Source: Candidatus Avispirillum sp. (GTDB lineage: Bacteria; Bacillota; Clostridia; Oscillospirales; CAG-272). From it: 50,135 nucleotides of DNA. The stretch is taken from assembly GCA_045545335.1 (NCBI GenBank), contig JAZQAS010000123.1, forward strand, positions 1 to 50,135, given 5' to 3'. Positions 8,105 to 41,600 of this stretch are shown piece after piece. The translations under genes and the position numbers were made by a program. Positions within the stretch are counted from its first letter, which is position 1. Each line of letters begins with the position of its first letter. Under the pieces are notes generated by a model. The model had not been told where the DNA came from. It searched no databases and worked only from the letters and a program-made list of their open reading frames with translations.

Positions 8105-8179
8105 GGCCCGTTGGTCAAGAGGCTAAGACACCGCCCTTTCACGGCAGTAACAGGGGTTCGATTCCCCTACGGGTCACCA
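8105..8179 (+). tRNA. tRNA-Glu (TTC)
   Basis: GGCCCGTTGGTCAAG...CCGCC-CT-TTC-AC-GGCAG...GTTCGATTCCCCTACGGGTCACCA. Confidence 0.95.
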
Positions 8180-8218
8180 AAACAAAAGGACACCTTCGGG
8201 TGTCCTTTTTGTTTTGAT
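8180..8218 (+). terminator. Terminator of tRNA operon
   Basis: AAACAAAAGGACACC-TTCG-GGTGTCCTTTTTGTTTT. Confidence 0.85.
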
Positions 8219-8385
8219 ACCCGTATTTAACGGGGAATCGAAAGGGCGTGTCTATGTCGGTACGACAGACAAAAACTCTCCGGTGGAGAGTTTTTAGCCC
8301 GTTGTGCTGATCTTTCGAAAAAATCATGTATCACGTCCGACCGTGAGCGCCGAAACGAGTTTCGGCGAAACCTTCAAATTTGAGT

Positions 8386-8422
8386 ATTCCCCTACGGGTC
8401 ACCAAAACAAAAGGACACCTTT
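8386..8422 (+). repeat. Direct repeat of tRNA-Glu 3' end plus left half of terminator; attL
   Basis: ATTCCCCTACGGGTCACCAAAACAAAAGGACACCTT is identical to 8161-8196; the right half of the hairpin is found at 21634-21656. Confidence 0.9.
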
Positions 8423-8481
8423 GGGGTCTTCACTTAAAGCAGTTTTGTGAGCGACGTCCTCAAGCGGTGTCCAAAAGACAG

Positions 8482-8526
8482 AAAGACCACACAATTGACT
8501 ATGATGTCGGCTGTGTGGTCTTTTTC
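8482..8526. terminator. Hairpin terminator at left end of island
   Basis: AAAGACCACACA...TGTGTGGTCTTTTT. Confidence 0.6.
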
Positions 8527-8537
8527 TGTTTGTAGGC

Positions 8538-8819
8538 TTACTCTTCAAAATCCAATCCCGTGAGCGTTTCGAGCATTAATCTTCCGCCGAGCCGGAATCC
8601 GTATGCGAATATCTCACGCTCGATAATGCCGTACATTTCATTGACACAATCATCGTATTTTGCCAAGGTTTCTTTCTGCTCTTCGGTGAGCGTTACGGAA
8701 AGGTTGTCACGGTTCTTACCCATAAGGTTCAGGAGGTTTTTGATTTCCCGATTGCCTTCGGTACTTTGTTCCTGGGGATTGATGTTTCCGTACCAAAACT
8801 CCTCAAGCAATGTCCTCAT
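8538..8819 (-). CDS. DUF6809-like small protein
   Basis: MRTLLEEFWYGNINPQEQ...L..TLTEEQKE.L.KY.DC..EM...IEREIFAYGFRLG; AGGAGG RBS before ATG 8819. Confidence 0.7.
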   Translation of the reverse strand: MRTLLEEFWYGNINPQEQSTEGNREIKNLLNLMGKNRDNLSVTLTEEQKETLAKYDDCVNEMYGIIEREIFAYGFRLGGRLMLETLTGLDFEE

Positions 8820-8934
8820 AATTCTCCTCCTTCCGCACATAACAAAACGACCGCATCTCCGAGATCATTCCCGGTGATACGGTCGTTTCTTTGTTTTTGG
8901 TTGTCTGTTTTGGCTTTGTTTTTATACGTGGCAT
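8803..8934 (-). CDS. Putative 43-aa leader/small protein overlapping the DUF6809 start
   Basis: AGGAGGTG RBS then MPRIKTKPKQTTKNKETTVSPGMISEMRSFCYVRKEENYEDIA*; contains a long hairpin at 8845-8889. Confidence 0.4.
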   Translation of the reverse strand: MPRIKTKPKQTTKNKETTVSPGMISEMRSFCYVRKEENYEDIA

Positions 8935-8990
8935 AATGTTGCACCTCCTTGTAGCACAACACTATACCGCCATACCTCCGAAAAGTCCAG

Positions 8991-9548
8991 TCATTTTGTT
9001 ACATCAAAAAAATATTCATTATTGATAGGCTTTGCATCGATTTCGTAGTTCTTTTTGCTCAATAGCGATTTGCGTCCGATAATATTCTTTTGAATGAGGA
9101 TTCCATCTTCGTTTTCAAGCTCACACTCGTAATAACAAAAGCCAAATATTTCAAGTATTATATTTGCACCAAGTCTGTTATGCCGAACATGCAAGAAAGC
9201 AAGAACAAAATAAAACAGTAAAAATAAAATCACGCCATACCAAACGGTAAAATCAAACGCAAACAGTGGCAGAACATATGTAAGAACATACTCTGCTGTG
9301 ATCAACTTTTCTTCCTTTATACTTTTCAACATGAACGGCTGCGCGCCTGACTTGTTTCCTTTCCTAAAAGATACAGCTACAACAATAGCAGAAACTATCA
9401 TAACAATAGCCATAATAGCAATGCTGATCATTTCAGTATAGATGTTTGGATTGCCATCAAATATATTCTTTCCATCAATGAATCCAATGGATAACCATAG
9501 CGGAGTCAGTGACAAATAAAACAAACTAAATGATTTTATTGCGGACAT
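8991..9548 (-). CDS. kwaA: Kiwa anti-phage membrane protein KwaA-like
   Basis: About 4 TM helices; YVLTYVLPLFAFDF...HVRHN...NIILEIFGFCYY pattern; adjacent to DUF4868-like gene. Confidence 0.7.
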   Translation of the reverse strand: MSAIKSFSLFYLSLTPLWLSIGFIDGKNIFDGNPNIYTEMISIAIMAIVMIVSAIVVAVSFRKGNKSGAQPFMLKSIKEEKLITAEYVLTYVLPLFAFDFTVWYGVILFLLFYFVLAFLHVRHNRLGANIILEIFGFCYYECELENEDGILIQKNIIGRKSLLSKKNYEIDAKPINNEYFFDVTK

Positions 9549-9563
9549 AGGGTTTCCTCCGTA

Positions 9564-10496
9564 TTATTTCCATTGTCTCGCTCCGTCAACTTCGACCGCA
9601 TCTTTATCAAATGGATCAAGCATACCTTTGTTGCATAACAGTTTAACTATTTTTTCACTTGCTCCATCAACCGACGTATCGAATTTTCCGGTTTCAGCAT
9701 CTAATGGAATCGAGAACTTTTTGGCGATAGAATTACGTGTGTTTTTATTTTTAAGAGCAGTCAATCTTTTTTCGTTAAAGGCTACAAATTTTCTTGGATT
9801 GTGTCCGGATTCAGCAACGCCTTTGAAGATTTCGGTGTCTGTAACAATAGCACTTTGTTCTATCTGTTCAACTTTATCATGACATACCTTTTTATACGAG
9901 CGTGCCATATTAAATAAATTCTCACCAGCAAGGGAAAGGAAGTAAACAGACTTGTCCAATATCAAAACATCCATTGTTGGTCTTAACGAAAGAACCTTGT
10001 CAGAAATTTCGTAAAACTTCCCGTGGTTGTGAGCAAACTTGTTTTTGAGTGTTGTGACAGGATTCTGCATAGAGATGAGTTTTACCGGGACTTCATTTTC
10101 ATCCAGTGTAAGTATACCTTTCAGCAAGTATGCGGAATTATAAGAAAAAGGGTCGCTTTCAGTATCAGGCTTAGCAATAGCTTCAAGGAGCGCATTGAAT
10201 TCGTTAGCTATCAATTCGCTATCAGCTTGTAACTTATACACCGTTAACGAGTTGGCTGTGCCATCATATTCGCGTACATCTTGATATAAGGATATTGCCT
10301 TTTTCTTTCCGTGAAGATAAATTCCCGAAATTTCTTTCAGCAGTTCTGGCAATTTACCTGAGGGTGATAGTTCGATTTGACGGCTTGAATATCCTATGCC
10401 GTCTTTTTTTGTTGAAACAATATTAAGTAGTTGTAATGACCACTGTGTACAGGTCTCAATGTTTTGAAAAACTTCCGTAATGATTGCTATTGACAT
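9564..10496 (-). CDS. kwaB: Kiwa KwaB-like (DUF4868) protein
   Basis: 310 aa; VLSLRPTMDVLILDKSVYFL..GENLFN pattern recalled from DUF4868; paired with KwaA-like gene. Confidence 0.7.
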   Translation of the reverse strand: MSIAIITEVFQNIETCTQWSLQLLNIVSTKKDGIGYSSRQIELSPSGKLPELLKEISGIYLHGKKKAISLYQDVREYDGTANSLTVYKLQADSELIANEFNALLEAIAKPDTESDPFSYNSAYLLKGILTLDENEVPVKLISMQNPVTTLKNKFAHNHGKFYEISDKVLSLRPTMDVLILDKSVYFLSLAGENLFNMARSYKKVCHDKVEQIEQSAIVTDTEIFKGVAESGHNPRKFVAFNEKRLTALKNKNTRNSIAKKFSIPLDAETGKFDTSVDGASEKIVKLLCNKGMLDPFDKDAVEVDGARQWK

Positions 10497-10500
10497 TCTT

Positions 10501-11445
10501 TCACCAACCTAATAAGTTTGATATATTTTCTGCAATTGTTTTTATAACAGGTACACACACCGAATTACCAATCTGCTTATAGGCATCATCGATGGTGATG
10601 GTATTCGGAAAATAGAACTCCTTTGGAAATCCCTGAAAGTCAAGGCACTCGCGAAGGGTTAGTTTACGAATACCGAAGTTATCCCACACCACAGGAACTC
10701 TGTTTGGGTATGTTCCCATATTGGCTGTTAGCGTGGGACACATCATATTCTTTGTCCATCTGACTTCCCTGTCGGTAATGCGATAGATGGCATTGCGGTC
10801 ACGCATACGCTTTGCAAGATAATCATACATTTCCGAGCCGTTATAGTAGTAAATGTTATGTTGTTTCTCACTTCTATGGATTATATCCGCAGAATGAAGT
10901 GTGAGCTTGGTAGGCTTGGGGTGCTGATAAATATGGTCTGCGATATCATCTCTTACGGCAATGATGTATATACGTTTCCGTATTTGAGGTAGATTACCAT
11001 ATTCATTTGCCGCCATCACCCGATAGTAGACCGAATAACCGAACTGCGCCAACGAATTGAATATGACAAGAAAAGTTTTTCCATTATCATGCTCCATTAG
11101 GTTCGGTACATTTTCAAGAAATACCACCTTGGGCCTTTTGGCATCAATAATGCGGGTGATCTCAAAGAAAAGGTTGCCTCTCTTATCATCAAAGCCTTTT
11201 TGACGCCCAGCTATAGAAAATGGCTGACACGGAAAACCTGCGGTAAGCACATCGAAATCGGGAATATCACTCGTATGCACATCTCTTATATCCGATTCTA
11301 TGAGATAGTCATTTCCAAAATTGTGACGATATGTTTTGCAAGCGGCGGCATCATATTCGTTTGCCCATACAATATCAAATCCTGCTTGTTTAAAGCCCAA
11401 ACAAATGCCACCAATGCCTGCAAATAAACTGATAGCTTTTTTCAT
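10501..11445 (-). CDS. DNA (cytosine-5)-methyltransferase, M.Bsp6I-like scaffold
   Basis: SLFAGIGG, GFPCQPFS, ENV, QIRKRIY, CPTLTANMGT, YKQIGNSV. Confidence 0.93.
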   Translation of the reverse strand: MKKAISLFAGIGGICLGFKQAGFDIVWANEYDAAACKTYRHNFGNDYLIESDIRDVHTSDIPDFDVLTAGFPCQPFSIAGRQKGFDDKRGNLFFEITRIIDAKRPKVVFLENVPNLMEHDNGKTFLVIFNSLAQFGYSVYYRVMAANEYGNLPQIRKRIYIIAVRDDIADHIYQHPKPTKLTLHSADIIHRSEKQHNIYYYNGSEMYDYLAKRMRDRNAIYRITDREVRWTKNMMCPTLTANMGTYPNRVPVVWDNFGIRKLTLRECLDFQGFPKEFYFPNTITIDDAYKQIGNSVCVPVIKTIAENISNLLGW

Positions 11446-11446
11446 A

Positions 11447-13006
11447 TTACAAGTCGGTAATCAAAACTTGGCGATCGAGTGAAAACAAGTCCTTGATTTG
11501 TGCGTGAGTATACGGTTCGGTCTGTTGCCTCTCTACCATTTGAATAACATTGGATACTGCAACGGCACTACCGTGTACACCAGTTTCATTGATGATGCGC
11601 ATCAGCTGTGCGTTGATGTTGCTACCAAAACCACCTGCGATGTACGAGAAAAAGGCAAGGCGATTAGAGGAAGAACAATAGTTACTAAGACCTTCGATAT
11701 AGTTGTGAACCATACGATTGTGATGGTCATTGCTGATGGTATATTTGCTGTAAGCTTTGTTATCGATAATTCCACAGTATCCATCGCTATCGGAAAGAAG
11801 CAACACATCAGGTGTCAGACCTATGGGGCCAACGTGGCGCGCATCAAAACCGAACACCTCTTGGAAAAGCCGAACGGTAGCTTTTTCAAATTCTGTGGCT
11901 TCATCTCTGCCTTTGAAAGCCATCTCAAAGTATTCGGTCATAAACGAACCGATAGCGCCACGGGGATAGAGCCGCAAAAGGGATTCTTCGACAAATTTCG
12001 CATCAAGACCCGTCTGTTCGGTAATTTTGTCGACAAGATCGGGTGTAATACGAGTGATTGGTGTTTTCAGAGATTCACCTACGAACGCCTGTTTCACCTT
12101 TTGCTCGTTAATGATTTTTGCGGTGATCGTCTTGGTAGCGGTTAGATTACGAGTATCCTTATTGTGTTTGGGGTCAATGCCGTATTTACGCTGAAAATAC
12201 TCATGTTGTTCTGGTCTGTCAATAAACGGGGGAGTTGTTGCTAAAATAGCGCGTACTTCTTCTATTTTTTCAGGAATGATACGAAGCAACCTATCTTCAT
12301 CGCTTCGCTTGGCAAGTTGGGTATATTCAATCCAGTTGATGAAGGTATTTGCGGTGTCGGTTAAATGGCTATACGGATGATCGGGATTTACTGTACCGGT
12401 CTTGGGGGCGTATTTTGTAAAGAAATCAGCATCCAAGGATGCGTTGCCATTATTTCTGAAAGCGTGCAGTTTTTCTATAACGGAGCGGTAACAAGTATCT
12501 GTTTCGTTCTCTGCATTCGTAATAATAACTTTGGCGATTTCTTCTTCCGAAAGATATCCCACCTCGTTGTCCATCAACAAACGAAGCAGAAATCGGAAAG
12601 GACGAATCTTGAAACGGCGCGAAACATCAACACCACGGCTCGTAGAGAACGATGACGGGAATTGATATTTTAGCACTTGATTTTTCAACACGGTTACAGG
12701 AGAATCGCCGTTCATAATTGCTTCTCCCGCAAGTGTTAGTTTGAGCTGTTTTGTAGATTCCTGTGTAAAAATCAAGCCAAGACTTGCAACCCATGCTTGG
12801 TATGTACGAGCGCCGCCACCCGTTTGGTCACGGCGTTCGCCTTTGCGCTTGATGTTAGATTCTTCTAACGCCTCTTCAAGTGTTAAGTGCGTATCTCTTT
12901 GCCCTTGCCATTCTTGATTTAGAGATATTTCGGCAAAGGTTGCCAACACTTCGGGTATGGAATTTAATTTTCTTTTCGGTCGTGTGACCCACCAAAAGTT
13001 AATCAT
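11447..13006 (-). CDS. Type IIS-like restriction endonuclease with C-terminal FokI-like PD-(D/E)xK domain (BbvI-like by context)
   Basis: PDVLLL...GIIDNKAYSKY.I...HNRMV.NYI resembles the FokI cleavage domain; sits between two C5 MTases. Confidence 0.8.
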   Translation of the reverse strand: MINFWWVTRPKRKLNSIPEVLATFAEISLNQEWQGQRDTHLTLEEALEESNIKRKGERRDQTGGGARTYQAWVASLGLIFTQESTKQLKLTLAGEAIMNGDSPVTVLKNQVLKYQFPSSFSTSRGVDVSRRFKIRPFRFLLRLLMDNEVGYLSEEEIAKVIITNAENETDTCYRSVIEKLHAFRNNGNASLDADFFTKYAPKTGTVNPDHPYSHLTDTANTFINWIEYTQLAKRSDEDRLLRIIPEKIEEVRAILATTPPFIDRPEQHEYFQRKYGIDPKHNKDTRNLTATKTITAKIINEQKVKQAFVGESLKTPITRITPDLVDKITEQTGLDAKFVEESLLRLYPRGAIGSFMTEYFEMAFKGRDEATEFEKATVRLFQEVFGFDARHVGPIGLTPDVLLLSDSDGYCGIIDNKAYSKYTISNDHHNRMVHNYIEGLSNYCSSSNRLAFFSYIAGGFGSNINAQLMRIINETGVHGSAVAVSNVIQMVERQQTEPYTHAQIKDLFSLDRQVLITDL

Positions 13007-14069
13007 AATCCACCTCGTCCTTCAATGAGGATTCCATTGACTCATATTCAATGCCTGCGAATGTTTTCAAAATAGCTTCAAAGATAATTTTTGCACCCTG
13101 GCACGGAACGGCCATACCGATCTGCTTTCTTACGGATTCCTTTGAACCCTCAAATACATAATCATCGGGGAATGTCTGCAATCTTGCACGCTCGCGATTG
13201 GTGAGAGCGCGAGGCTCTTCCCAGTGATAGATATGTGTTCCACCACCACCGGAACCCGTTACCGTATAGGCAGGCTTGGTGGGGTCAAGTCTTTTATAAA
13301 TTTGACTAATCTTTGCTCCACGAACATTCAGTTTTAGCTCGTCTGGCAGATCTGCATTAAAAGCATTTTGACCGGGGAGAATATGCATCAAACGCTCGAC
13401 TACCTTTGCGGATTGCTTGGTAAGTTCATTGTTTGGTGCGTTAGCAGGGATGGGAGGATTCTCGATAGCATTTCTGCAGGTTACATCCATATCTGCATAA
13501 GGAGCATAACTCGGGATTTTGAACTCATATGGCAGATCTTTACGAATGCCAACAATGATTACTCTGTGACGAGCTTGTGGGACACCGTATTTTTCAAAGC
13601 AGTAGAGATTGGGGTATACACGATATCCGGCATCACGCATATCGGCAAGGATTTTTTCAAATGCGTTTCCCTCATTAGCACTACGCAAACCGCCGACATT
13701 CTCTGCCAAAAACCACTGCGGCTGATGTGTTCTTAAAATCTGGACACCGTAAGAGTACAAGGGGCCGAACTGACCATTGAATCCCTTTTGCTCTCCCACA
13801 ACGGAAAAATCGTTGCAAGGGAAACCGAAAGCGAGAGCGTCGATATGAGGGAGGTTGTCCAAGTCAAGTTTGCGAACATCACCCCAAATTACGCTATTGG
13901 GGTCTTGAGGACAAATATTCCTTCTATATGTATTACAGGTGTCGCTGTCATAGTCGTTTGCCCAGGCATGCACAATTTTATAATTATCTAAACCAATGTC
14001 AGCGTTGGTAGCTCCCCAAGCCAATCCGCCGGGGCCACAGAACAGCTCGCCTAATTCAAAAATAGCCAT
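12999..14069 (-). CDS. DNA (cytosine-5)-methyltransferase, M.BbvI-like
   Basis: GELFCGPGGLA, FGFPCNDFS, AENVGGL, SQIYKRL..AYTVTGSGGGGTH.YHWEEPRALTNRERARLQTFPD, as recalled for M.BbvI. Confidence 0.92.
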   Translation of the reverse strand: MAIFELGELFCGPGGLAWGATNADIGLDNYKIVHAWANDYDSDTCNTYRRNICPQDPNSVIWGDVRKLDLDNLPHIDALAFGFPCNDFSVVGEQKGFNGQFGPLYSYGVQILRTHQPQWFLAENVGGLRSANEGNAFEKILADMRDAGYRVYPNLYCFEKYGVPQARHRVIIVGIRKDLPYEFKIPSYAPYADMDVTCRNAIENPPIPANAPNNELTKQSAKVVERLMHILPGQNAFNADLPDELKLNVRGAKISQIYKRLDPTKPAYTVTGSGGGGTHIYHWEEPRALTNRERARLQTFPDDYVFEGSKESVRKQIGMAVPCQGAKIIFEAILKTFAGIEYESMESSLKDEVDYD

Positions 14070-14081
14070 AATTTTTTCTCC

Positions 14082-14291
14082 TTAAATTTCATCGCCGTTA
14101 TATAAAACGAACTTTCTAACAAACGATGCACCTACAGCATCTGCAATTACATTCAATTCTGCTATAGTAAAGCTTTCTCTTTTCATTTTAGCACTAAGAC
14201 TTTGCGGAGACATACCAATACGTCGAGCCAATTCAGCCATACTAATATTAGAACGTACACACAAAACTTTTATCTGTTCGGAAATACTCAT
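14082..14291 (-). CDS. Small XRE/Cro-like HTH regulator (controller-like) heading the defence operon
   Basis: 69 aa, ISMAELARRIGMSPQSLSAKMKR HTH. Confidence 0.85.
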   Translation of the reverse strand: MSISEQIKVLCVRSNISMAELARRIGMSPQSLSAKMKRESFTIAELNVIADAVGASFVRKFVLYNGDEI

Positions 14292-14319
14292 AGAATCCCC
14301 CTATAATAATGTTGTATTT

Positions 14320-14348
14320 ATTATAAACGTTTTTATTTAGCTTGTCAA
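14320..14348 (-). promoter_or_regulatory. SigA promoter of HTH-RM-Kiwa operon
   Basis: Minus-strand TTGACA-N17-TATAAT. Confidence 0.75.
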
Positions 14349-14414
14349 TATATACGATTAGCATATTGTAGCCTTCTCACATTTTTTGTGGGATGGTTTA
14401 TTTTTTTAGAAAAA

Positions 14415-15055
14415 CACCCCTACAAAACATAGTCCTTTTCTCCGTAGATACGAAAAGGATATTTTTTGTAAATAGGGGCCCCAAAACGCCTTTGAAATCT
14501 CCGTATAGTGAAAGACTGAATTATTTTGCGAGACAGGGGCCCCAAAAGGCTACTTTTTTCTGCGTATAGCGAAGAGGATAAATTTTTTCAAAAACTTTTG
14601 AAAAATACCCCCCCAATTAGCCCTTCAATTCTCCGTATAACGGGAGGAATAAAAATTTTTAAAGTTTTTTTCGGAAAGTACCCCCCCAGAACGCTATGTT
14701 TTTCTGCGTATAGTGAGAAACGCCTTTTTGAAAAAGTTTTGCAAAACACCCGAACAAAACCATATGTAAATGTCCGTATAGTGAGGAACTCATTTTTTTA
14801 GAAAGTTTTGAAAAACCGCACTACATTTCCTCGGTGGTGAAGTGAAAGGAAAAAACATTGCGAAACTTCCGCCAAAACGATACCCACGTGGCCAGTGGTA
14901 AGTGAGGTGAAAATTTTTTCAAAAAAGTTTCACAGAATTTTTCCCAAACGGCATCCTGATGTCCGTTGGAGATTAGAGGGAGAAATTTTTTCAAAGAATT
15001 TTTCAAAATTTTCGCCAAAACGCAATTCAAATGTGCAGTAGTTAAGTGAAAGGAG
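14415..15055 (+). repeat. Array of 10 degenerate ~60-75 bp units with fixed CAAAAC-N14-CGT(A)/CAGT geometry (putative alternative-sigma promoter array)
   Basis: Motif pairs 20 nt apart at 14423/14443, 14482/14502, 14543/14563, 14614/14634, 14687/14707, 14755/14775, ~14812/14832, 14873/14893, 14944/14964, 15016/15036, separated by A/T tracts. Confidence 0.8.
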
Positions 15056-15064
15056 CAAATAAAT

Positions 15065-17380
15065 ATGAAAGTTCAAAAGATACCGCAGACTCTGAAAGAC
15101 CTCGGAGAGTTCTGCTGTTGGAAGCATGAGGTCAAGGACGGCAGAAAAACAAAAGTACCATATAACCCTGTAACCGGGTACGGCGCAAGAACAAATGACC
15201 CGTCCACATTCGTCCCCTTCGATACCGCCGTTAACGCATCCGGTTATGACGGCATCGGCATCCGTGTCAGCGGACAGTTCGTAGGCATCGACCTTGACCA
15301 CTGTATGGAGGATGGCAATATCGTATCTTGGGCAAAGGAGATCACAGACCGCTTTGCTGATACCTACATAGAGGTAAGTCCATCGGGAGAGGGCATCCGC
15401 ATCTTCTGCTTGCTGCCTGATAACCTCAATTACAATACCGAAACCTACTACATCAAAAAAGCTGGCATTGAGGTTTACATACCCGGTTACACCAACCGAT
15501 TCCTCACCGTTACCGGGAACGCATTGACCCAGGCTGATGTGACCGAAACGGCAGAGGCACTCACGTGGTTGCTCAACACATATATGCGTCGACCTACTCC
15601 AACCACTCCCGCCGCCGTTGTATGCGGTAAAAGCTATCTCTCCGATGACAGCATTGTCACAAAGGCATCTACTGCCGTGAACGGAGAGAAGTTCGTAAAG
15701 CTGTGGAACGGAGATATATCGGATTACGGCTCACGCAGCGAGGCAGATGCCGCCCTGGTATCCATCCTTGCATTTTGGTGCAGTGGAGATACCGAACAGA
15801 TAGACAGGCTGTTCCGCACTTCGGAACTGATGCGTGAAAAGTGGAACGAGTATCGTGGTGCCGATACTTACGGAAATATAACGATCGCAAAGGTGGTATC
15901 AAAAACGACCGACTTTTACAAACCTATCATCAAACCTTCCGCTGCCGAAGATTTCGGCGTGGATCGGCTGAAGGAACTTGACCCTATGGACTCCGCCAAA
16001 TACCCCTGGAACGATATCGGTGCAGGACATATCTTCGCAGACTTCTTTCAAGACAGACTCCGCTATGTGCCAGAACGCAAGATGTGGTTTTACTACGAAG
16101 ACGGCATTTGGAACAAAGACACCGGCAACCTCCGTGCAATGAAATATTGTATGGAACTTGCCAACCTTATGTACTCCTTTGCCCTTGAAATCAAGGATGA
16201 GGATAAACGTAAGTCATATATGAAATATGCCGCCAAGTGGCAAAACCACTCCAACCGAGTCAACATCCTCAAGGATGCCCAGGTGCATCACCCCATCCAC
16301 TACGGAGACTTCGATGCCGACATTTATGCCTTCAATTGCAAAAACGGCACGCTGCATATCGACACCGGGGAATTTACCGAACACCGTAGCACCGACCTGC
16401 TCACCAAGATTAGTCCTGTCACCTATGACCCCACGGCTCACTCCGAGCGTTTCAGCACCTACATCGATGAGATTATGAGCGGTGACACGGACCGAGCCAA
16501 GTTCCTTCAGAAGATACTCGGTTACGGTCTTACCGGGGATACCCGCCACGAGTGTATGACCATCCTCTACGGTGCAACCACCCGTAACGGCAAAGGCACA
16601 CTCTGTGAAAGTGTACTGAAGGTGCTTGGCGAATACGGCTGCACCTCCCGTGCAGAAACCATTGCTATGAAGAACTACACCAACGGTTCACAACCGAGCG
16701 AGGATGTGGCTCGGCTGGCAGGTGTCCGTTTCGTAAATATCTCCGAGCCGACCAAGGGTATGGTGCTTGACGCTGCCAAGATAAAAGCTATGACGGGTAA
16801 CGACACCTTGAACGCTCGTTACCTTCACGAAAACAGCTTTGACTTCCAGCCGCAGTTTAAGATCTACGTTAACACCAACTATCTGCCGGTAATCAACGAT
16901 ATGACCCTCTTCACAAGTGACCGCATCATCATTATCCCGTTTGACAGGCATTTTGATGAGCAGACCCGTGACACATCCCTCAAGCAGAAGTTTGCCGAAC
17001 CGGATGTGCAAAGCGCCATCCTCAACTGGCTGTTGGCGGGGTATCGTCTGTTACGCAAAGAGGGGCTGCGCCTACCCAAATCGGTAAGGGATGCTACCGA
17101 ACGCTATCAGCACGACAGTGACAAGATGGTGCTGTTCTTTGAGGACCACCTGGTAGCGGACGATACCGCCGAGGAACTGACCTCCGTGGTGTATGCCCGC
17201 TACAAAGGTTGGTGTCAGGAGAACGGATGCTATGCGGAGGGGATGAAGAACTTCAAGCAAGGTTTGGAGACCTTCGCACCTGTCGTCCGGAAAAGACCGA
17301 AGCACGGCGGCGAGAAAACCACACTGCTCATCGGCTACCGACTCATCTCGGAATTCGATGTGCCGCCGCTGACAGCTTAA
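15065..17380 (+). CDS. Primase-polymerase (NrS-1-like) fused to D5/P4-type SF3 helicase
   Basis: GIDLDHC, YIEVSPSGEGIRIF, IEVY..RFLTVTG (prim-pol); SEADAAL..LAFW..QIDRLFR.S.LMR.KW; Walker A GATTRNGKGT, ISE, KAMTGNDTLNARYL. Confidence 0.9.
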   Translation: MKVQKIPQTLKDLGEFCCWKHEVKDGRKTKVPYNPVTGYGARTNDPSTFVPFDTAVNASGYDGIGIRVSGQFVGIDLDHCMEDGNIVSWAKEITDRFADTYIEVSPSGEGIRIFCLLPDNLNYNTETYYIKKAGIEVYIPGYTNRFLTVTGNALTQADVTETAEALTWLLNTYMRRPTPTTPAAVVCGKSYLSDDSIVTKASTAVNGEKFVKLWNGDISDYGSRSEADAALVSILAFWCSGDTEQIDRLFRTSELMREKWNEYRGADTYGNITIAKVVSKTTDFYKPIIKPSAAEDFGVDRLKELDPMDSAKYPWNDIGAGHIFADFFQDRLRYVPERKMWFYYEDGIWNKDTGNLRAMKYCMELANLMYSFALEIKDEDKRKSYMKYAAKWQNHSNRVNILKDAQVHHPIHYGDFDADIYAFNCKNGTLHIDTGEFTEHRSTDLLTKISPVTYDPTAHSERFSTYIDEIMSGDTDRAKFLQKILGYGLTGDTRHECMTILYGATTRNGKGTLCESVLKVLGEYGCTSRAETIAMKNYTNGSQPSEDVARLAGVRFVNISEPTKGMVLDAAKIKAMTGNDTLNARYLHENSFDFQPQFKIYVNTNYLPVINDMTLFTSDRIIIIPFDRHFDEQTRDTSLKQKFAEPDVQSAILNWLLAGYRLLRKEGLRLPKSVRDATERYQHDSDKMVLFFEDHLVADDTAEELTSVVYARYKGWCQENGCYAEGMKNFKQGLETFAPVVRKRPKHGGEKTTLLIGYRLISEFDVPPLTA

Positions 17381-17388
17381 ACCACAAG

Positions 17389-17478
17389 TTCGGGGCAGTG
17401 TGGCAGGTAATTTTATATTTTTCCTATAGTAATAAATATTTTGTAAAAAACCATAATTACTTGCCACATTGCCCCGAA
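17389..17478. other. Putative replication origin: 24-bp inverted repeat around AT-rich core
   Basis: TTCGGGGCAGTGTGGCAGGTAATT ... AATTACTTGCCACATTGCCCCGAA directly after the helicase stop codon. Confidence 0.6.
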
Positions 17479-17525
17479 AAGGAGAAAGGATGTGATGCCT
17501 ATGATTGCATACGGCTTGTGACCTA

Positions 17526-17621
17526 CCCCTGGGGGTGGTCAAATCTCTACGACCTTTTGCTCGTGCAACGGGCGTGGGGTCTCACGCAAAAATTCGCAAA
17601 ATCAAACGGGGTATTAACCCC
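17526..17621 (+). repeat. cos-like site 1
   Basis: AAATCTCT-N17-CAACGGGCGTGGGGT-N7-AAAAATTCGCA; inverted copy at 19519-19616. Confidence 0.6.
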
Positions 17622-17647
17622 AAAATCAAACAAAGGAGCGTACGTTT

Positions 17648-17905
17648 ATGAAATTCAAATTCAACTACAGCAAATCACCCAAGATGTCTGCAAAGGACAC
17701 CAAGAATTACTCCCACGGCAATTACGAATGCCGTCTCCTCTTGCAGACAATGAAAGGCCAGCCGGTGGCTATCTTCCAAAACACCGATAACGATGTGTGG
17801 AAGGTGCAGTACGGTTTCAGTTCTGTGTTCTTTGGAACATACGATGAGGCAATGCAGTTCTGCCGAGAGCGTTTCTGCGATACTTCCGGCAAGCGCCTCT
17901 CCTAA
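17648..17905 (+). CDS. Hypothetical protein (85 aa)
   Basis: AAAGGAG RBS; first gene of capsid module. Confidence 0.7.
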   Translation: MKFKFNYSKSPKMSAKDTKNYSHGNYECRLLLQTMKGQPVAIFQNTDNDVWKVQYGFSSVFFGTYDEAMQFCRERFCDTSGKRLS

Positions 17906-17920
17906 AGCGGAGGTGCGGCT

Positions 17921-18220
17921 ATGGAGTATATCAGATATCACCCTCTCATCGATTGCGATTCCGATGGGGTTGAAAAGGTGCCGATGTTTTTCAGCGCCGA
18001 TGAAGACTCCGTTCGTGAAACCCATTCGATGTACCTTGTGGAGTGTATACCCCACACATTTAGGCTTGTGGCCAAAGACTCCCATACACCAGAAGAGGCT
18101 CTTGCCTACAAAATCCACTGTCCCACCTGTGGACAGATTATGACACCCATCAGCGGTGTTTACGACAAAAACAAATTACAATTGCTCGTTTGCAAGAAAT
18201 GCAATCCGAGCCGCCATTAA
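17921..18220 (+). CDS. Small Zn-ribbon protein
   Basis: GGAGGTG RBS; CPTC...CKKC. Confidence 0.75.
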   Translation: MEYIRYHPLIDCDSDGVEKVPMFFSADEDSVRETHSMYLVECIPHTFRLVAKDSHTPEEALAYKIHCPTCGQIMTPISGVYDKNKLQLLVCKKCNPSRH

Positions 18221-18234
18221 AGGAGGAAATTATT

Positions 18235-18534
18235 ATGGCAGTTTATCCCTTACACGTAGAGGCACAGAGCCTCGTACCCCAGAATTCTTTTTACAGTGAG
18301 GAGCACGCATCCCGTATGTGTTCCTGGTATCTCACCGATCACCCAGTGAAAGACGAGCACGGCTGTATTCAGCAGACCTACCGCTTACACTCTTGTGAGC
18401 GCCGTAGCTTTGCGGATTTTATGCAGTACGATGTGGAATGTCCCAAGTGTCATCAGCGTCTCCGTCCCATCCAGAACGCCATCAACTCTCACGACCTGGC
18501 ACTTTACGCCTGCCCCAAGTGCTACAAGAAATAA
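18235..18534 (+). CDS. Small Zn-ribbon protein, likely paralog of the preceding gene
   Basis: AGGAGG RBS, ATG 18235; CPKC...CPKC with the same spacing as the neighbour. Confidence 0.75.
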   Translation: MAVYPLHVEAQSLVPQNSFYSEEHASRMCSWYLTDHPVKDEHGCIQQTYRLHSCERRSFADFMQYDVECPKCHQRLRPIQNAINSHDLALYACPKCYKK

Positions 18535-18546
18535 GGAGGACAACCT

Positions 18547-19485
18547 ATGAATACTTACAGCAAAATGCTCCCTCATCTCGAGAGTGGTAGCTACGACTAT
18601 GATTTTTGGAACGCTATGCGTGGCAAACAGCACAATGATGAGCGCCTTGCTCACGGCAAAGATACCTCGACCAGTGCTTTCCATATGTCCACGATGAGCA
18701 ACAACAAGTATATGACGGCATTGCAGAAAGAGAGCATCTTCCGTCAGATCGGCACTTGTATTACCACCTACAACAATGGACACCGCATCCTTGCAAAGGA
18801 CACTACCGACCTGGCCGAATGGGTACCGGAAGGTGAAACCATCCCTATGCAGGAAAGCATCAATGACTTCACCGAGAAATCTCTCGGCAGCCACAAGCTG
18901 ACCGTGTTCGTGAAAACCGATGAGGACTTCATCCACGATGTCACCTTCGACTTTGAAGCCTACCTCACCAACCGCTTGGCGAAGAACTTCGGACGAGCCG
19001 AGGAAAAGGCATTTATCACCGGAACGGGCAAAAATATGCCCACCGGTATCCTTGCTGATAAGGATGGTGCGGATATCGGGGTAACGGCAAAGACCATCAC
19101 CTACGATGATGTGGTCAAGCTGTACTTTTCGGTCAAGCCCGAATACCGCAAACACGGTGTTTGGATGATGAATGATGAGACCGCCCAGGTTCTTCGCACC
19201 TTGAAAGATGACGGCGGTAACTATATTTGGAATCACACCAACGATACCATTATGGGTAAGAGGGTCATCATCTCCGAGTTTATGCCTTCTGTTGGCAATG
19301 GCAACAAGCCTATCGCATTTGGCAACTTCTCCTACTATTGGGTGGTTAACCGCCGCCCCGTGAGTGTACGTTGCTTGAGAGAAATGTTCGTTCTCCAGGA
19401 CCAGGTAGGACACCTCGCTTTTGAGTTCTTGGACGGCAAGCTCGTCCGTACCGAGGCTATCAAGGTAATGCAGATAACCGCATAA
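18547..19485 (+). CDS. HK97-fold phage major capsid-like protein
   Basis: AEWVPEGE.IP, LGSHKL, AEEKAFITGTGKNMPTGIL, WMMN..T...LRTLKD..GNYIW, IAFGNFSYY, DGKLVRTEAIK. Confidence 0.88.
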   Translation: MNTYSKMLPHLESGSYDYDFWNAMRGKQHNDERLAHGKDTSTSAFHMSTMSNNKYMTALQKESIFRQIGTCITTYNNGHRILAKDTTDLAEWVPEGETIPMQESINDFTEKSLGSHKLTVFVKTDEDFIHDVTFDFEAYLTNRLAKNFGRAEEKAFITGTGKNMPTGILADKDGADIGVTAKTITYDDVVKLYFSVKPEYRKHGVWMMNDETAQVLRTLKDDGGNYIWNHTNDTIMGKRVIISEFMPSVGNGNKPIAFGNFSYYWVVNRRPVSVRCLREMFVLQDQVGHLAFEFLDGKLVRTEAIKVMQITA

Positions 19486-19518
19486 TTTTCGGGAGGCCCC
19501 TTGTGGGATAACTGCAAG

Positions 19519-19616
19519 GGGCTATTCCCCCTAAAACTTATGCGAATTTTTACACGCAACCCCACGCCCGTTGTACCATCAAAAAGCCACAGAGATTTAG
19601 ATCCCCCTACCGGGGG
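19519..19616 (-). repeat. cos-like site 2 (inverted)
   Basis: Reverse complement reads AAATCTCT-N17-CAACGGGCGTGGGGT-N7-AAAAATTCGCA. Confidence 0.6.
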
Positions 19617-19634
19617 CTTGGAAAGGAGACGGCT

Positions 19635-19805
19635 ATGGATGTGAACTCCATTACAGAAAACAAAGCAAACCGAGTCACAGAAATACAGATAGGAGAAACG
19701 CTTTTTACAGTAGTCTCCGTTGAAAGTGACCGCGCCAAAGAGCACCTTTACGATAAGGTGAAGCGTTTGATACTGGACAACGCTGACCGCTCGCAGGCAG
19801 CATAA
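19635..19805 (+). CDS. TnpW-like small protein (56 aa, not in ORF track)
   Basis: GAAAGGAG RBS; MDVNSITENKANRVTEIQIGETLFTVVSVESDRAKEHLYDKVKRLILDNADRSQAA*; typical position upstream of TnpX-like recombinase. Confidence 0.75.
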   Translation: MDVNSITENKANRVTEIQIGETLFTVVSVESDRAKEHLYDKVKRLILDNADRSQAA

Positions 19806-19848
19806 CAGTTCGCAAATTATTATCATTTATATGTACAAATAACCTTGA

Positions 19849-21570
<1,722 letters not shown>

Positions 21571-21615
21571 CCGGATTTCTCCAAACTATGCCGATATTTT
21601 TCCAAGGAATAAAAT

Positions 21616-21656
21616 CCCTTAGTGAGACACCCTTTCGGGTGTCCTTTTTGTTTTGA
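21616..21656 (+). repeat. attR, containing the right half of the split terminator
   Basis: CCCTTAGTGAGACAC-CCTTT-CGGGTGTCCTTTTTGTTTTGAT; 3' part identical to 8195-8218. Confidence 0.85.
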
Positions 21657-23390
21657 TTATTCAAACTGACTGTTATAAAGGCTTGCGTAGAAGCCGCCTT
21701 CAGAGAGCAGGCTTTCGTGGGTGCCCGATTCAACTATGCTTCCGTCCTTCATCACGAGAATGAGGTCCGCATCCTTAATAGTCGTAAGGCGGTGCGCAAC
21801 GATAAAGGAGGTGCGCCCCTTCATCATTTTCGCAAATGCGTCCTGTATCTTCATTTCCGTTCTTGTGTCAATGGAGCTGGTCGCCTCGTCGAGAATAAGC
21901 ATTGGAGGCAGGGTCAGCATAATGCGGGCAATGCACAAAAGCTGCCGCTGTCCGCCGGAAAGGCCGTAGCTTTGGGATATAACGGTGTCGTAGCCCTCGG
22001 GCAACCTTTTTATAAAGCTGTGAGCGTGAGATGCCTTTGCCGCGGCAATGACCTCCTCGCGGCTCGCATCGGGGCGGCCGATGGCAATATTATCGTGAAC
22101 GGTGCCGTATCGCAGAGTGGTATCCTGAAGCACCATGCCGTAATTCTTGCGAAGGCTCTTTCGCTTGAGAAGAGGAACGGGGGTAGAGTCAACGGTAACG
22201 GCGCCGTCCTGCACGTCGTAAAAGCGCATCAGAAGGTTTATGAGGGTAGTCTTTCCGCATCCCGTAGGGCCGACGATGGCAACTCTCATTCCGGGCTCGG
22301 CCTTAAAGGAGAGCCCCTCCATAAGAGGCTTATCTTTTGTGTAGGAGAAGCTGACGCCCTCAAAGGCAACCTCGCCCCGCACGTCCGTAAGCTCTGCTGC
22401 TCCGTCGCAGGGCTCTTCAGTTTCCTCAATAAGCTCAAAAACGCGTTCCGCGCAGGCAATTGAGCCCTGCAGCTCCGCAATAACACCGGAGATCTCGTTA
22501 AAGGGCTTTGCATACTGGGTCGCGTAGGAGAGCAGGCAGGAAAGACCGCCGATGGTGAGAGCCGCGCCTGCGGAGTAAATGACCGTAAGTGCCCCCGCAA
22601 GGGCAACGACGGCGTAGATCACGTTGTAGATTATCCTCGTCGTGGGATTAACGAGGGATGAGAAGAAGGTAGCCTTGAGGCTTGCCTTTTTGAGGCGGCC
22701 GTTTATCTCGCAGAACTTATCCGTGTTTCGCTTTTCCATTCCGAAAATGCGAACAAGCTTCTGGTTTTGGGTCATCTCCTGAATAAAGGAGGTCTCCTCG
22801 CCTCTGATGGTCGCCTGCGCCTTGAACATGCTGTGGGTTCGGCTTGCGATAAACCTTGCAAGGAGGAGGGAAAGGGGAGTTAAGAGAATAACGATAAGAG
22901 CTATCCTCCAGTCAATTGCGATCATAAAGCCGACTGTGCCGAGAACTGTGATAACTCCCGTGAAAAGCTGAGTAAAGCTCATGAGAAGCCCGTCGGAGAA
23001 CTGGTCAACGTCGGTGATGATACGGCTCACCGTGTCTCCCTCGGGGTGGGTGTCAAGGTAAGATAAGGGCAAGCGCTGAAGCTTTTCAATTGCGTTGTTT
23101 CGCATATCGCGGGCAACGCCGAAGGTAATGCGGTTGTTGATGACGCTCATTATCCAGTTGGTAAGAGCGGTAAGTAAAATAACGGCCCCCGCCTTTATAA
23201 AGAGGGCGGTAATGCCTTGAAAATCAACGGTACCCGCTCCCGTCATAAGGTCGATGGCGTCGCCGAAAACAGTCGGCAGATAAAGGGTGAGACCAACGGA
23301 GACCCCCGCCGAGAGAACGGAAAGAAGAACTAAAAATCTGCGCTTTCCGAGATAGCGGAGTATCCTTTTTAAGGTAGAATTCTTTTTCAT
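21657..23390 (-). CDS. ABC exporter permease/ATPase (heterodimer subunit)
   Basis: TM domain plus GPTGCGKTT, LSGGQRQ, ILDEATS; ATG 23390 after GAAAGGGGG RBS. Confidence 0.92.
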   Translation of the reverse strand: MKKNSTLKRILRYLGKRRFLVLLSVLSAGVSVGLTLYLPTVFGDAIDLMTGAGTVDFQGITALFIKAGAVILLTALTNWIMSVINNRITFGVARDMRNNAIEKLQRLPLSYLDTHPEGDTVSRIITDVDQFSDGLLMSFTQLFTGVITVLGTVGFMIAIDWRIALIVILLTPLSLLLARFIASRTHSMFKAQATIRGEETSFIQEMTQNQKLVRIFGMEKRNTDKFCEINGRLKKASLKATFFSSLVNPTTRIIYNVIYAVVALAGALTVIYSAGAALTIGGLSCLLSYATQYAKPFNEISGVIAELQGSIACAERVFELIEETEEPCDGAAELTDVRGEVAFEGVSFSYTKDKPLMEGLSFKAEPGMRVAIVGPTGCGKTTLINLLMRFYDVQDGAVTVDSTPVPLLKRKSLRKNYGMVLQDTTLRYGTVHDNIAIGRPDASREEVIAAAKASHAHSFIKRLPEGYDTVISQSYGLSGGQRQLLCIARIMLTLPPMLILDEATSSIDTRTEMKIQDAFAKMMKGRTSFIVAHRLTTIKDADLILVMKDGSIVESGTHESLLSEGGFYASLYNSQFE

Positions 23391-34924: not shown

Positions 34925-35178
34925 AAATAAAAAACGCCTCCGCTCCTGCCGAATGCAAGAGACGAAAGCTAACTTCCGCGGTACCACTCTTATTGACATC
35001 AGAAGATGTCCGCTCATGGGGTACTTACATACCCTGTCCCAAGATAACGGGGGCAACCGGTCAAGCCTACTGAATTCAGCCGACAGCTCAAGGGTGAGTA
35101 GCTTCCGGGTCGGTAATGCCTCGCACCAAACGGCATCTCTCTGTAAAGGACGAAATGAAGCTTTATCCCTATCATTGC
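34925..35178 (-). promoter_or_regulatory. T-box riboswitch, probable Leu (CUC) specifier
   Basis: Stem I with AGAGA and GGTG boxes, specifier loop UA-CUC-A (35096-35098), AGUA box, CCGUUA, antiterminator AAGAGTGGTACCGCGG (34976-34991), terminator; promoter TTGACT-N17-TAAAAT at 35188-35216. Confidence 0.88.
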
Positions 35179-35328
35179 TTTTCGTGTATTTTATCACAGT
35201 GAAGTGGAAAAGTCAATGGTTTTTTTATAAAAAAAGTAAAAAGAATATTTCTTTTCTTATGTACAATGGTGAAAAAATATGGTAAAATGAAGTATAAATA
35301 AATTATATTGAAAGGTCCGGAGAAAACA

Positions 35329-38671: not shown

Positions 38672-41600
38672 TTAGATCTTCCTCTTGAAATATCTGTTAA
38701 CTATCTTCTGCCAGGGGTTCATGCCCGAGTAGATGGAGGCGATGATATCCTCAAGATACTCAGCCATTGCGTGAAGCTCGGCGTAGGTAAGTCCGTGTCC
38801 GAACTCCTCCTTTTCCATATACTCGATAACGAGGCCCACGTCAATACCGGAGAGGTTGCCGTAGTCCTCCCTCATCCTCTGTGCGAAATCGCGCTGAAGC
38901 TCGCCGGGGCGAGGACCGCAGCCGACGGTGTCGTAGATTTCGAGGATGTAGTCGGTGATCCGTCGTGTCACCTGCCTTGAGTCAACGCTCTTGTCCGTAT
39001 ACGCATCCTGGTTCTTCGCCGTATCGATGACCTCGTAGCGTGCCTTCATCGCCTCTCCCGCTCTCTTGTTTATAAAGCGGATGATAAGGTAGATAAGGGC
39101 GCAAACTGCGGCAACGATAAGAGCGATAAGCATAATGCGGAGGAACCATTCGAGATCGGAGACCTCTTCGGGAACCTCATAGTCGTCCTCGCCTATAAGA
39201 TCGTCGATGTCGGGCTCCTCGCCAACGAAGGGAGGCTTCAGACCGCCGTCGTCCTCCTCCTCAAGACCGAAGTTGGGGTCAAGAAGAGAGGGGTCCATAG
39301 TATCGCTGTTGGGGTCGTACATATCCTCGCAGTACTGACCGGGAGTAACCTCGTACTGCATCCAGCCCATACCGTCGATATAGACCTCCACCCAGGCGTG
39401 AGCGTCCGTTCCGTAGATATCGGAGCGGTTCTTGGCATCGTTTCCGCCAAGGGATTCAAAATCGCTTGCAACGTAGCCCTCAACGTATCTTGCGGGAATA
39501 CCGTATTCGCGAAGGAGCGTGACGGCGCTTGTTGCAAAGTGAGTGCAGTAGCCCTCCTTCACCTCTGTGAGAAAGGCTTCAACAACGGGCTTTGTGCCGA
39601 CGGTCAGATCGCCGTTGGGCGTTTCTGTGTAGGTGTAGTCGCTTCTGAATCTGTTAACGATTGCGTTGACCGTTTCGTGAACGGTGAGCTCGCCGTCGTC
39701 GTCAGAGGCAAGAGCCTCGCTCTTGAGCTCATCGGCATAGAGGGTGATAGCCTCGCTGTCAGCCTTTCTCGTGTACGTGTCGTAAACGTAATCGCGGTAC
39801 TTTTCTTCAAGCTTGAAGCTTTCGATAAGCTCGGCCTTTTCCTCCTCAGTCATGGAGAAGTAGTATCTGTCGGCAATGCTGGTGCCCTGATACTCAATTC
39901 CCTCGGCGCCGAACTGCTCCTCAAGGGCAAAAACGATAGCCGTAGCATCGGCGTCGGTAGCATCGGGAGACTGTAGGATGGCATCGCGGCAAAGCTCGTA
40001 ATATCTGAGGGACATATCTATACTCTCAGCGGTGTCAGCTCGGTTAAGCGCCGTAATATAGGAAACGGTGCTGTAGCCTCTGCCGTATCTGAACTGGAAG
40101 GAGGAGTAGGTGCCCTCAAAATAGTTCTGATATTTGTAGGGGGTGGGTATGATCTCAGAGTAGGTGAGGATACCCATATCGGTGTTCATATGAGCAGGGG
40201 CGAATATAAGCAGGCTCTGTCCGCGGACTCGCCAAACGTCTATCTGCTGCATAGTGAAGCCGTATTTTGTAAAGTTCTTGTAGGTGTTTGCATCCTCAAT
40301 AACGGTGGATGCGGGGTAAACGTAGCTGTAGTAAGAGGTCTTGATAGAGTCGGGGGTAAAGTCCTTGCCGAAGGTCTCGCGGTACTTGTGAACGTCGTCA
40401 TAGGTTGCGCTGTACCAGGATCCCGTGTCGTAGTTGAAGTCGGTAGCGATCCAGCTTCGCAGGTAAACGTTTGAGGTGCCCTCAGCGTCAACTCTGAAGA
40501 GAAGCCTGTCGGAAAGCTCAAGGGGATCGAAGGTGACCTCGCGGGGGGCAAGGTCGTCAATGCCGTAAACGTAAGGGTCGTTCAGGTCAACGTCGCTGCC
40601 TCTCAGATAAGCCGTAACATACGCGCGGGCAGTCTGCACGCGGTCGTTGATGGGCTCGATTATCTTAAAGGGCTGGCTGACGGCGGCAAGAGGGATCCAG
40701 AGAGCAAGAAAAGCTATAAGACCAACGCCAAGGCCCGTGTAGCCGCCTGCCATTGAGATCTTTGAGAGCCTTATTCTCAGCTCCTTTTTCTTTCTTCTCT
40801 TTTCTTTGAGGGCTTCCTTTTTGGCAGTCTTTTTTGCGCCCTGCTCGGCGTTTTCCAAGCTGATAGCCGCAAGGGTCGCCTCAACGGTTGCAGTGTCCTT
40901 TTTCTTTTTCGCCTTGGAAAGGGTTGCAGAGAGAGCCTTCAGCCTCTTCTTCTTGTCCTTCTTTGCCTGCTTTGCGGCAAGCTTTGCAAGCTTCTTGTCC
41001 TGCTTTCTCTTCTTCTTCTCAGCCTTCTTTGAGGCCTTGTGAGTCTTGAAAACAGCCTTCTTTGCCTTTCTTGCAACGGCGGGAGTCATATCCGCGTCAA
41101 TTGCGCGGTCAAAAACTTGGTTCGCCTCGTCCTTAAGGGCCTTTTTCGCTGCCTTCTTTGCGGCGCGCTTTTCAAGTTTCTGCTTTTTCTTTTCTTCCTT
41201 TTTCTTCTTTTTCTCCGCAGTTCTTTCGGCTCTGCCGCCGTAGCGGTGGTCGTAGACCTTGAGAGCGATTGCCGCGCAGATAAATACTATGCAAAAGGCG
41301 ATACCCGCATTGCCCTCGGCAATGTTGTAGGTAAGGATAGGCGCAAACACAAGGGTCATAAGAATAACGATGGGGGTGATGCGCGTCTTTTTCGCAATGC
41401 AGAAGTAAAGGATAAAGCCGATAAGCGTGCAAAGGAGGAAGGCTCCTCCGAAGCGGTAAGGGTCGTAAAGAACGGTGCCTGCGGCGGTGTAATCGTATCC
41501 GTCGTTTATCATAAAGTTTCCGAGGGAGTAGTATCCGAAGGAGGAAACGTGATAAAGGGCGAAGTTGTAGACCCTGAGAGCACTCTTAACGGTAAAGTCG

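Follow-up and report, generated by a model that had tools for sequence, protein, structure and literature searches.

Opposed cos-like sites of two types beside the capsid gene of a candidate phage satellite from a gut clostridium

SaPIbov5 and SaPIbov4, Staphylococcus aureus pathogenicity islands (SaPIs) of the cohesive-end (cos) type, are described in the accessible parts of their literature as ∼14-kb elements without a terS gene of their own that carry a copy of the helper phage cos site and a homologue of the helper's HK97-fold capsid protein, leading to small capsids (PMC5052747; PMC8569155). Phage-inducible chromosomal islands (PICIs) of the capsid-forming kind (cf-PICIs) make their own capsids and, in the accessible part of the report on them, encode a full head-and-packaging set (10.1101/2022.09.08.507074). 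Here we analyze a candidate satellite in a 50,135-nucleotide (nt) stretch of Candidatus Avispirillum sp. (contig JAZQAS010000123.1, positions 1 to 50,135; referred to below as the window), in which two opposed repeats bracket a block of small open reading frames (ORFs) and a capsid gene. The known system that this element most resembles is the cos-type SaPI, represented by SaPIbov5. We consider it probable (∼0.6) that the two repeats are cos sites from the HNH-terS region of HK97-like phages with an HNH-assisted terminase, that they lie in a satellite-type island, and that the two probably recruit terminases from different helper lineages.

Like SaPIbov5, the island, which is known here from sequence alone, carries cos-like sites near a homologue of the capsid protein of motif-carrying phages and has no terminase. 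A single cos site is described for SaPIbov5 in the accessible text (PMC5052747), whereas this island has two opposed sites of different types; it also differs from SaPIbov5 in its large serine recombinase with a TnpW-family protein and in its gut Clostridia hosts. The island spans 13.4 kb (8189-21657) and is bounded by ∼30-nt direct repeats that are 94% identical (Table 1). It shows the hallmarks of satellites of the PICI and cos-SaPI type, namely, an integrase with att-like repeats, its own primase/replicase, and a length of 13.4 kb without TerL, portal, tail, or lysis genes. Scanning the island ORFs against Pfam and PHROGs revealed no terminase, portal, protease, tail, or lysis gene, so the island must borrow terminase, portal, tail, and lysis functions from a helper phage. 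P4 and, as far as their accessible description goes, the cf-PICIs are likewise integrated elements that bring a replicase of their own and whose cos site matches the helper's. To our knowledge, P4 has no capsid gene. Unlike the cf-PICIs, the island encodes the capsid protein alone of the head-and-packaging set. Classical PICIs carry tyrosine integrases, and the sequence indicates that the large serine recombinase is the integrase of this island.

An earlier note on this DNA had pointed to three exact blocks with equal spacing and differing spacers, facing each other across three small ORFs and the capsid gene. Both observations hold. The pattern AAATCTCT-N17-CAACGGGCGTGGGGT-N7-AAAAATTCGCA is exact at 17541-17598 (+) and 19541-19598 (-), once per strand of the window, and is far beyond chance, since none of 100 dinucleotide-preserving shuffles of the window matched it; the ORFs and the Phage_capsid gene between the copies are given in Table 1. 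A repeat finder reported the pair as inverted repeat I1 (arms 17541-17621 and 19518-19598; 81 nt, 73% complementary, 1,896 nt between them), and pairwise alignment extended the likeness to ∼108 nt, slightly past the coordinates first proposed. The main differences between the copies are in the two spacers and in the final third, which reads ...AAATCAAACGGGGTATTAACCCC in copy 1 and ...TAAGTTTTAGGGGGAATAGCCCC in copy 2. The 3′ end of copy 1 abuts the ribosome-binding site of orf85, and copy 2 occupies the 149-nt gap between the capsid stop codon and the TnpW start. In the 2.2-Mb, 79.6%-complete assembly, the 15-nt core occurs only in these two places, even with up to one mismatch allowed, and a motif profile search returned the same two copies only.

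The motif is shared with phages, where it has a consistent position. A BLAST search of copy 1 against 50,697 phage records matched 16, including Oscillospiraceae/Ruminococcus "NatCom" phages (Candidatus Heliusvirales), Streptococcus Javan prophages, and Terrisporobacter phage TPDSL_ph1; the Streptococcus version of the motif also matches Gardnerella phage vB_Gva_AB1. In annotated phage records (e.g., TPDSL_ph1 and Javan102), the motif lies between the HNH endonuclease gene and terS. The exact 15-mer was found at at least 120 loci in viral contigs, and among the matches listed, 60 of 120 also have AAATCTCT no more than 40 nt upstream. Pfam assignments of the flanking ORFs at viral loci identified Terminase_4 (PF05119) downstream in all four tested and HNH (PF01844) upstream in both tested. 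The earlier note had suggested a resemblance to the cos region between HNH and terS of HK97-like phages and had named phage genomes as the place to look for the motif. Its presence between HNH (PF01844) and Terminase_4, together with homology near the HK97 cos end, bears this out, although the HNH-terS position holds for the phage homologues and the island copies adjoin neither gene. Our literature search, with supplements such as Fig. S1 of PMC5052747 (the SaPIbov5 cos alignment) outside its reach, returned no description of the motif, of the cos ends of these phages, or of satellites with two cos sites.

Separately, we observed a 4,640-nt phage-type contig from IMG/VR (L015) with two direct modules of HNH end, site, and terS (1076-1177 and 2493-2595), 1.4 kb apart and encoding different TerS proteins. 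Either the packaging-recognition module is duplicated in this phage, or the contig is a chimera of the assembly.

Comparison with HK97 connects the motif to a characterized cos site. According to the accessible text of PMC11331095, HK97 cos is cut between -1 and +1 with a 10-nt 3′ overhang, the minimal TerS site extends from +15 to +29 and consists of a recognized G and an adjacent A-tract, and cleavage is stimulated by the HNH protein gp74. The GenBank record of HK97, which we used as the reference, begins at one cos end and finishes at the other. Its final 52 nt consist of GGGGGGGGGATCAAATCTTC, 19 nt containing ACCTTTGC, and the terminal GACCGCCGCCAAA. Copy 1 has the same layout: GGGGGTGGTCAAATCTCT, 19 nt containing ACCTTTTGC, and the core. 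In HK97, as in the motif, cos lies between the HNH gene and terS, a GGGG..TCAAATCT block and then ACCTTTGC precede, by ∼19 nt, a GC-rich stretch of 15 nt whose end is the cut, and an A/T-tract follows downstream. Unlike the motif, HK97 has a different core (its C-rich strand occupies this position), and its TerS is not detectably related.

We built a motif profile from 102 diverse instances with <85% mutual identity, many of which had been retrieved because they match the core or the type A 3′ block exactly, which inflates the conservation of both blocks. Profile nodes 10-44 aligned to HK97 39682-39716 (nhmmer; 12.4 bits, E value of 1.6e-4 for 4 kb searched; the best of 500 shuffles scored 7.5 bits), and at the HK97 right end (L261, 783-817), the 5′ block stands at the same distance from the physical end as in the motif. 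When this alignment is extended without gaps, the 10-nt HK97 overhang falls on GGGCGTGGGG of the core, which predicts cuts at about the positions given in Table 1. In the same extension, the equivalent of the HK97 TerS site is TCGCAAAATCAAACG in copy 1 and TCGCATAAGTTTTAG in copy 2, where the copies diverge. Some phage cores are HK97-like (L163 and L186: GACCGCCGCCCCCT). In phi12, the helper of SaPIbov5, the sole profile match in the 45-kb genome (L278, 20518-20573) falls in a ∼100-nt gap just before terS, and it is weak (5.7 bits, E value of 0.44). Based on homology and position, the identification of the repeats as cos sites has good indirect support, and GGGG..TCAAATCT followed by ACCTTTGC may be a conserved recognition element of HNH-assisted terminases.

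The difference between the copies lies at about +20 to +29 relative to the predicted cut and defines two site types. In the alignment of island copies, upstream co-oriented copies all have the type A ending, and downstream opposed copies nearly all have the type B ending. Both endings are found in phages: simple patterns assigned 61 phage/viral loci to type A (37), type B (13), or other (11). The five full-length TerS proteins beside type B sites are 85 to 100% identical to one another and 44 to 70% identical to 24 proteins beside type A sites, in a comparison that leaves out L074, where the ORF is not a TerS and scores 0; the TerS group beside type A sites is itself diverse. Site type follows TerS clade, as would be expected if the 3′ half is the TerS-binding part. 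Among the functions that the earlier note had offered for two opposed sites, service to two helper terminases fits best. The part that stands is that the copies belong to two types going with different TerS clades; the use of two helpers itself is something that we infer.

The candidate helpers are phages that carry the motif. Over its full length, the island capsid protein shares 35 to 39% identity with the major head proteins of motif-carrying Heliusvirales-like and Streptococcus phages, and it is to the head proteins of motif-carrying lineages that it is most closely related among phages. Sixteen of 300 other genomes of the same family match copy 1; three of these loci are of phage type, with the site beside terS, including a prophage-type locus with a type A site in the same genus (G105), and the other classifiable ones are of island type.

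We infer the following course of events. The island would be excised by its large serine recombinase and replicated by its own primase. TerS of a helper would bind the 3′ half of the matching site, a stretch ∼15 to 30 bp downstream of the cut, and TerL, with HNH, would cut at the conserved G-rich 15-mer (the cosN equivalent); the upstream block GGGG..TCAAATCTCT would be a common feature of this packaging system. Packaging would proceed away from the HNH-side block, i.e., rightward from copy 1 and leftward from copy 2, and go on along the concatemer until the same site is reached again, yielding one 13.4-kb unit. By analogy with Ccm of SaPIbov5 (PMC8569155; PMC5052747), the capsid homologue encoded by the island probably steers assembly toward heads of a size suited to this unit. 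Because types A and B differ in the TerS-side stretch, the terminase that each copy recruits probably comes from a different helper lineage, and two helper lineages would widen the range of phages able to package the island. This dual-helper function is plausible from the sequence comparisons. The orientation of cos would be immaterial on a circular or concatemeric replicon. With identical cores, the other site might be cut by a motor that encountered it in the same orientation, and opposed orientation would avoid this.

Related islands offer a broader view of how such sites are arranged. A search with the capsid protein identified 13 related genome loci from Acutalibacteraceae, Oscillospiraceae, Lacrimispora, Faecousia, Erysipelotrichaceae, other Clostridia, and one Mycoplasmopsis gallinarum assembly. 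Each of the 13 carries primase, small ORFs, capsid, TnpW, and serine recombinase in this order and in one orientation. When we included island-type loci found in viral contigs, in the phage collection, and in genomes of the same family, the capsid matched over at least 200 amino acids (aa) in 25 rows, representing 23 distinct loci that are not all independent events (L129, L130, and L076 are near-identical). Nine loci pair a type A site upstream with an opposed type B site downstream (the window, L126, L128, L014, L046, L129, L130, L076, and L137, with only a weak upstream copy). Eleven have the upstream co-oriented copy only (nine of type A and two of a third type), two have the downstream opposed copy only (L132, of type A, and L139), and one (L257) carries type B and type A sites in tandem, both upstream. 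The upstream copy stands before orf85 or directly before the capsid gene, and the downstream copy always stands 33 to 89 nt past the capsid stop codon. Since there are islands with only an upstream or only a downstream opposed copy, a single copy in either orientation suffices for an island. An inverted capsid module was not encountered.

In the more distant island L257 (G003:C89, 1502-1705, -), the type B-like and type A-like sites are 15 nt apart in direct tandem, just upstream of a capsid gene whose product is 28% identical to that of the window. The same B-then-A layout occurs in a metagenome contig of run X6 (record 24). The A and B pairing has therefore arisen or persisted in two different arrangements, and opposed orientation is not a strict rule. 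One contig each of runs X5 and X6 gave an "opposite strands" joint, 17531/19518, in which a type B 3′ half is followed by a type A 5′ half; we rejected this joint as an inversion product, and it matches the tandem form seen in L257.

The island on the Mycoplasmopsis gallinarum DSM 19816 scaffold (L132, 7001-9937) has a capsid protein 51% identical and a recombinase 53 to 79% identical to those compared, with a single type A site, downstream and opposed. This may be a striking host jump or contamination of that assembly.

Several results weigh against reading the repeats as a pair of cos sites for two helpers. The significant HK97 alignment is limited to the 5′ block, and the cut on the core is an ungapped extrapolation. 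BLASTP detected no similarity between HK97 TerS and type A TerS, and HK97 TerS matches no Pfam family. In a survey of assembled contigs, 99 viral contigs have the type A 3′ block and none of them has a terminus within the core, and the assembled Logan contigs of four metagenome runs, none of which contained half of the sampled words, showed no pile-ups of contig beginnings or ends. The link between site type and TerS clade could reflect co-inheritance alone, which is conceivable because the type B phages are close kin. The pairs in L257 and in phage contig L015 are direct, so inversion is not obligatory. The motif profile search of the 79.6%-complete assembly found no motif-bearing helper prophage, and type B is rare in the family: copy 2 was matched in 3 of the 300 other genomes, none shown to be a phage. 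Finally, the type A copy has the same orientation as the capsid operon, stands upstream of it, and adjoins a ribosome-binding site.

That a single copy suffices in 13 of the 23 loci also leaves room for an unlikely alternative, in which only one copy packages the island and the other is either a relic of recombination with a phage or a decoy. Such a decoy would draw off or misdirect a competing phage's terminase and so serve interference, not transfer. Interference with helper packaging is known for satellites. In several islands, moreover, the downstream copy scores well below the upstream one against the profile (42 versus 70 bits in L128 and 52 versus 80 bits in L129). This alternative sits poorly with the window, where both copies keep all three blocks exactly and copy 2 keeps the type-specific 3′ half found beside the terS of type B phages. 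The combination of A and B also recurs, inverted and in tandem, in islands with capsids 28 to 59% identical, which argues for selection on having both.

The placement of the upstream copy raises the possibility that it acts as a helper-dependent late promoter or leader, including in a dual role with cos. Upstream copies of type A or C are all co-oriented with the capsid operon and end just before the ribosome-binding site, as they do before terS in phages, and a "transcriptional regulator" gene lies just upstream of HNH in TPDSL_ph1. We consider it distinctly improbable, however, that the motif is mainly transcriptional, i.e., a late promoter or leader for a helper-encoded late activator, with the upstream copy turning on the capsid operon during late development of the helper and the downstream copy giving rise to an antisense RNA or a barrier. 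The downstream opposite-strand copy is the only one in L132 and L139 and could not drive the capsid gene there, the promoter scan found no sigma-70-like promoter in either copy, no conserved RNA fold was found, and the 5′ block is common to the DNA beside the physical end of HK97.

The earlier note had also suggested that the capsid module might be invertible, with the repeats as crossover sites for a site-specific recombinase that flips the 1.9-kb segment. Inverted repeats with an identical 15-bp core and a nearby serine recombinase gene would suit such a role, but the comparative evidence speaks against it and we regard it as very improbable. All 13 related genome loci agree in gene order and orientation, 13 of the 23 islands have one copy only, and the same sequence occurs singly before terS in phages. 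The recombinase is built like a large serine integrase, direct repeats of its own flank the island, and the metagenome contigs are colinear, with one of 2,931 nt spanning both copies and no joint at the cores among Logan contigs of the four runs. Least credible of all is that the repeats encode a structured noncoding RNA, one per strand, since the small GC hairpins at both ends of each window copy are offset by the lack of any Rfam match at the copies at gathering thresholds, by RNAalifold finding 0 conserved pairs over the 102 diverse motif instances, and by the absence of the 3′ hairpin from many phage versions (e.g., L019, L124, and L165). The missing pairs and Rfam matches instead point to conservation of the sequence, as expected for a protein-binding DNA site.

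Table 1. Coordinates of the island features in the window
Feature	Position	Strand	Evidence or remark
Left direct repeat (attL-like)	8189..8218	+	94% match to 21626-21657; overlaps terminator hairpin just after tRNA-Glu (8105-8179)
Island cargo: DUF6809, 185-aa ORF, KwaB-like protein, two C5 cytosine methylases, FokI-type cleavage domain protein	8538..14069	-	Pfam
Cro/CI-type helix-turn-helix (HTH) regulator	14082..14291	-	Pfam, PHROGs; divergent from rightward operon
Primase/helicase replicase, 771 aa (NrS-1 pol HBD, D5_N, Pox_D5, DUF5906)	15065..17380	+	Pfam; PHROGs phrog_1829, E 2.8e-156
Long hairpin, 34-nt arms, 82% complementary, AT-rich center (repeat I2)	17389..17478		Directly follows primase gene; precedes copy 1
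cos-like site, copy 1, type A 3′ half	17520..17627	+	Core 17566-17580; predicted 10-nt overhang 17570-17579 (ungapped extrapolation from HK97)
orf85	17648..17905	+	Conserved in related islands
orf99a, small protein, C-terminal CxxC...CxxC	17921..18220	+	Conserved in related islands
orf99b, orf99a paralogue	18235..18534	+	Weak zinc-ribbon match below Pfam cutoff
HK97-fold major capsid protein homologue, 312 aa	18547..19485	+	Pfam Phage_capsid, E 8.7e-72
cos-like site, copy 2, type B 3′ half	19510..19617	-	Core 19559-19573 (- strand); predicted overhang 19560-19569
TnpW-family small protein	19635..19805	+	PF14202, E 5.2e-07
Large serine recombinase (Resolvase, Recombinase, Zn_ribbon_recom, DUF4368)	19885..21570	+	Pfam, PHROGs
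Right direct repeat (attR-like)	21626..21657	+	Repeat search and alignment

The remaining features of the island are listed in Table 1. The terminator hairpin under the left repeat follows tRNA-Met/tRNA-Glu, and host ABC transporter genes lie to the right of the island. Another genome of the genus has a 40-nt stretch that is 90% like the direct repeat (G304:C107:23343-23381) and may mark a site that is empty or occupied. In the leftward cargo, the FokI-type cleavage domain protein is flanked by the two C5 cytosine methylases, and the set looks like one for restriction-modification or defense. Another locus (L127) has FokI-like, methylase, and HTH genes 96 to 98% identical to those of the island beside a quite different primase (26% identity), a mosaic that suggests module exchange between islands. 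The promoter scan placed a perfect sigma-70-like promoter at 14348-14320 (-), by the HTH regulator. The long hairpin between the primase gene and copy 1 is a candidate replication origin or terminator of the island. The proteins encoded by orf99a and orf99b are ∼32% identical over their C-terminal halves, each ending in a CxxC...CxxC zinc-ribbon-like motif, and related islands carry one or two genes of this type; Pfam, PHROGs, and two ESM Atlas look-ups placed the three small ORFs in unnamed clusters only, with no known family or function. Outside the island, the window also contains a T-box leader (34955-35184, -; 117.5 bits), unrelated to the repeats.

What sets the island apart from the cos-type SaPIs is its hosts, its integrase type, and its paired heterotypic sites. 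More tentatively, and at somewhat less than even odds, we propose a wider picture in which minimalist, capsid-encoding satellites with heterotypic cos pairs, one per phage TerS lineage, are widespread in gut Firmicutes and are packaged by two helper lineages, with the opposed layout preventing second-site cutting. The HNH-assisted cos architecture (GGGG..TCAAATCTCT, N19, G-rich cut site, TerS site) would then be conserved from HK97 to phages of Clostridia, streptococci, and Gardnerella. The copying of helper cos sites and the remodeling of capsids by satellites are known from staphylococci, and how satellites cope with several helpers is an open question; if our interpretation is true, an island with two cos sites of different TerS-side sequence is a simple genetic solution to the problem of multiple helpers. 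For a large group of uncultured gut phages, the HK97 alignment predicts concretely where cos would be cut. The island family ranges over Acutalibacteraceae, Oscillospiraceae, Lachnospiraceae, Erysipelotrichaceae, and a Mycoplasmopsis genome and carries restriction-modification/defense-like cargo. Based on these broad hosts and this cargo, the family may be a common vehicle of gene transfer in gut communities, driven by very abundant Heliusvirales-like phages.

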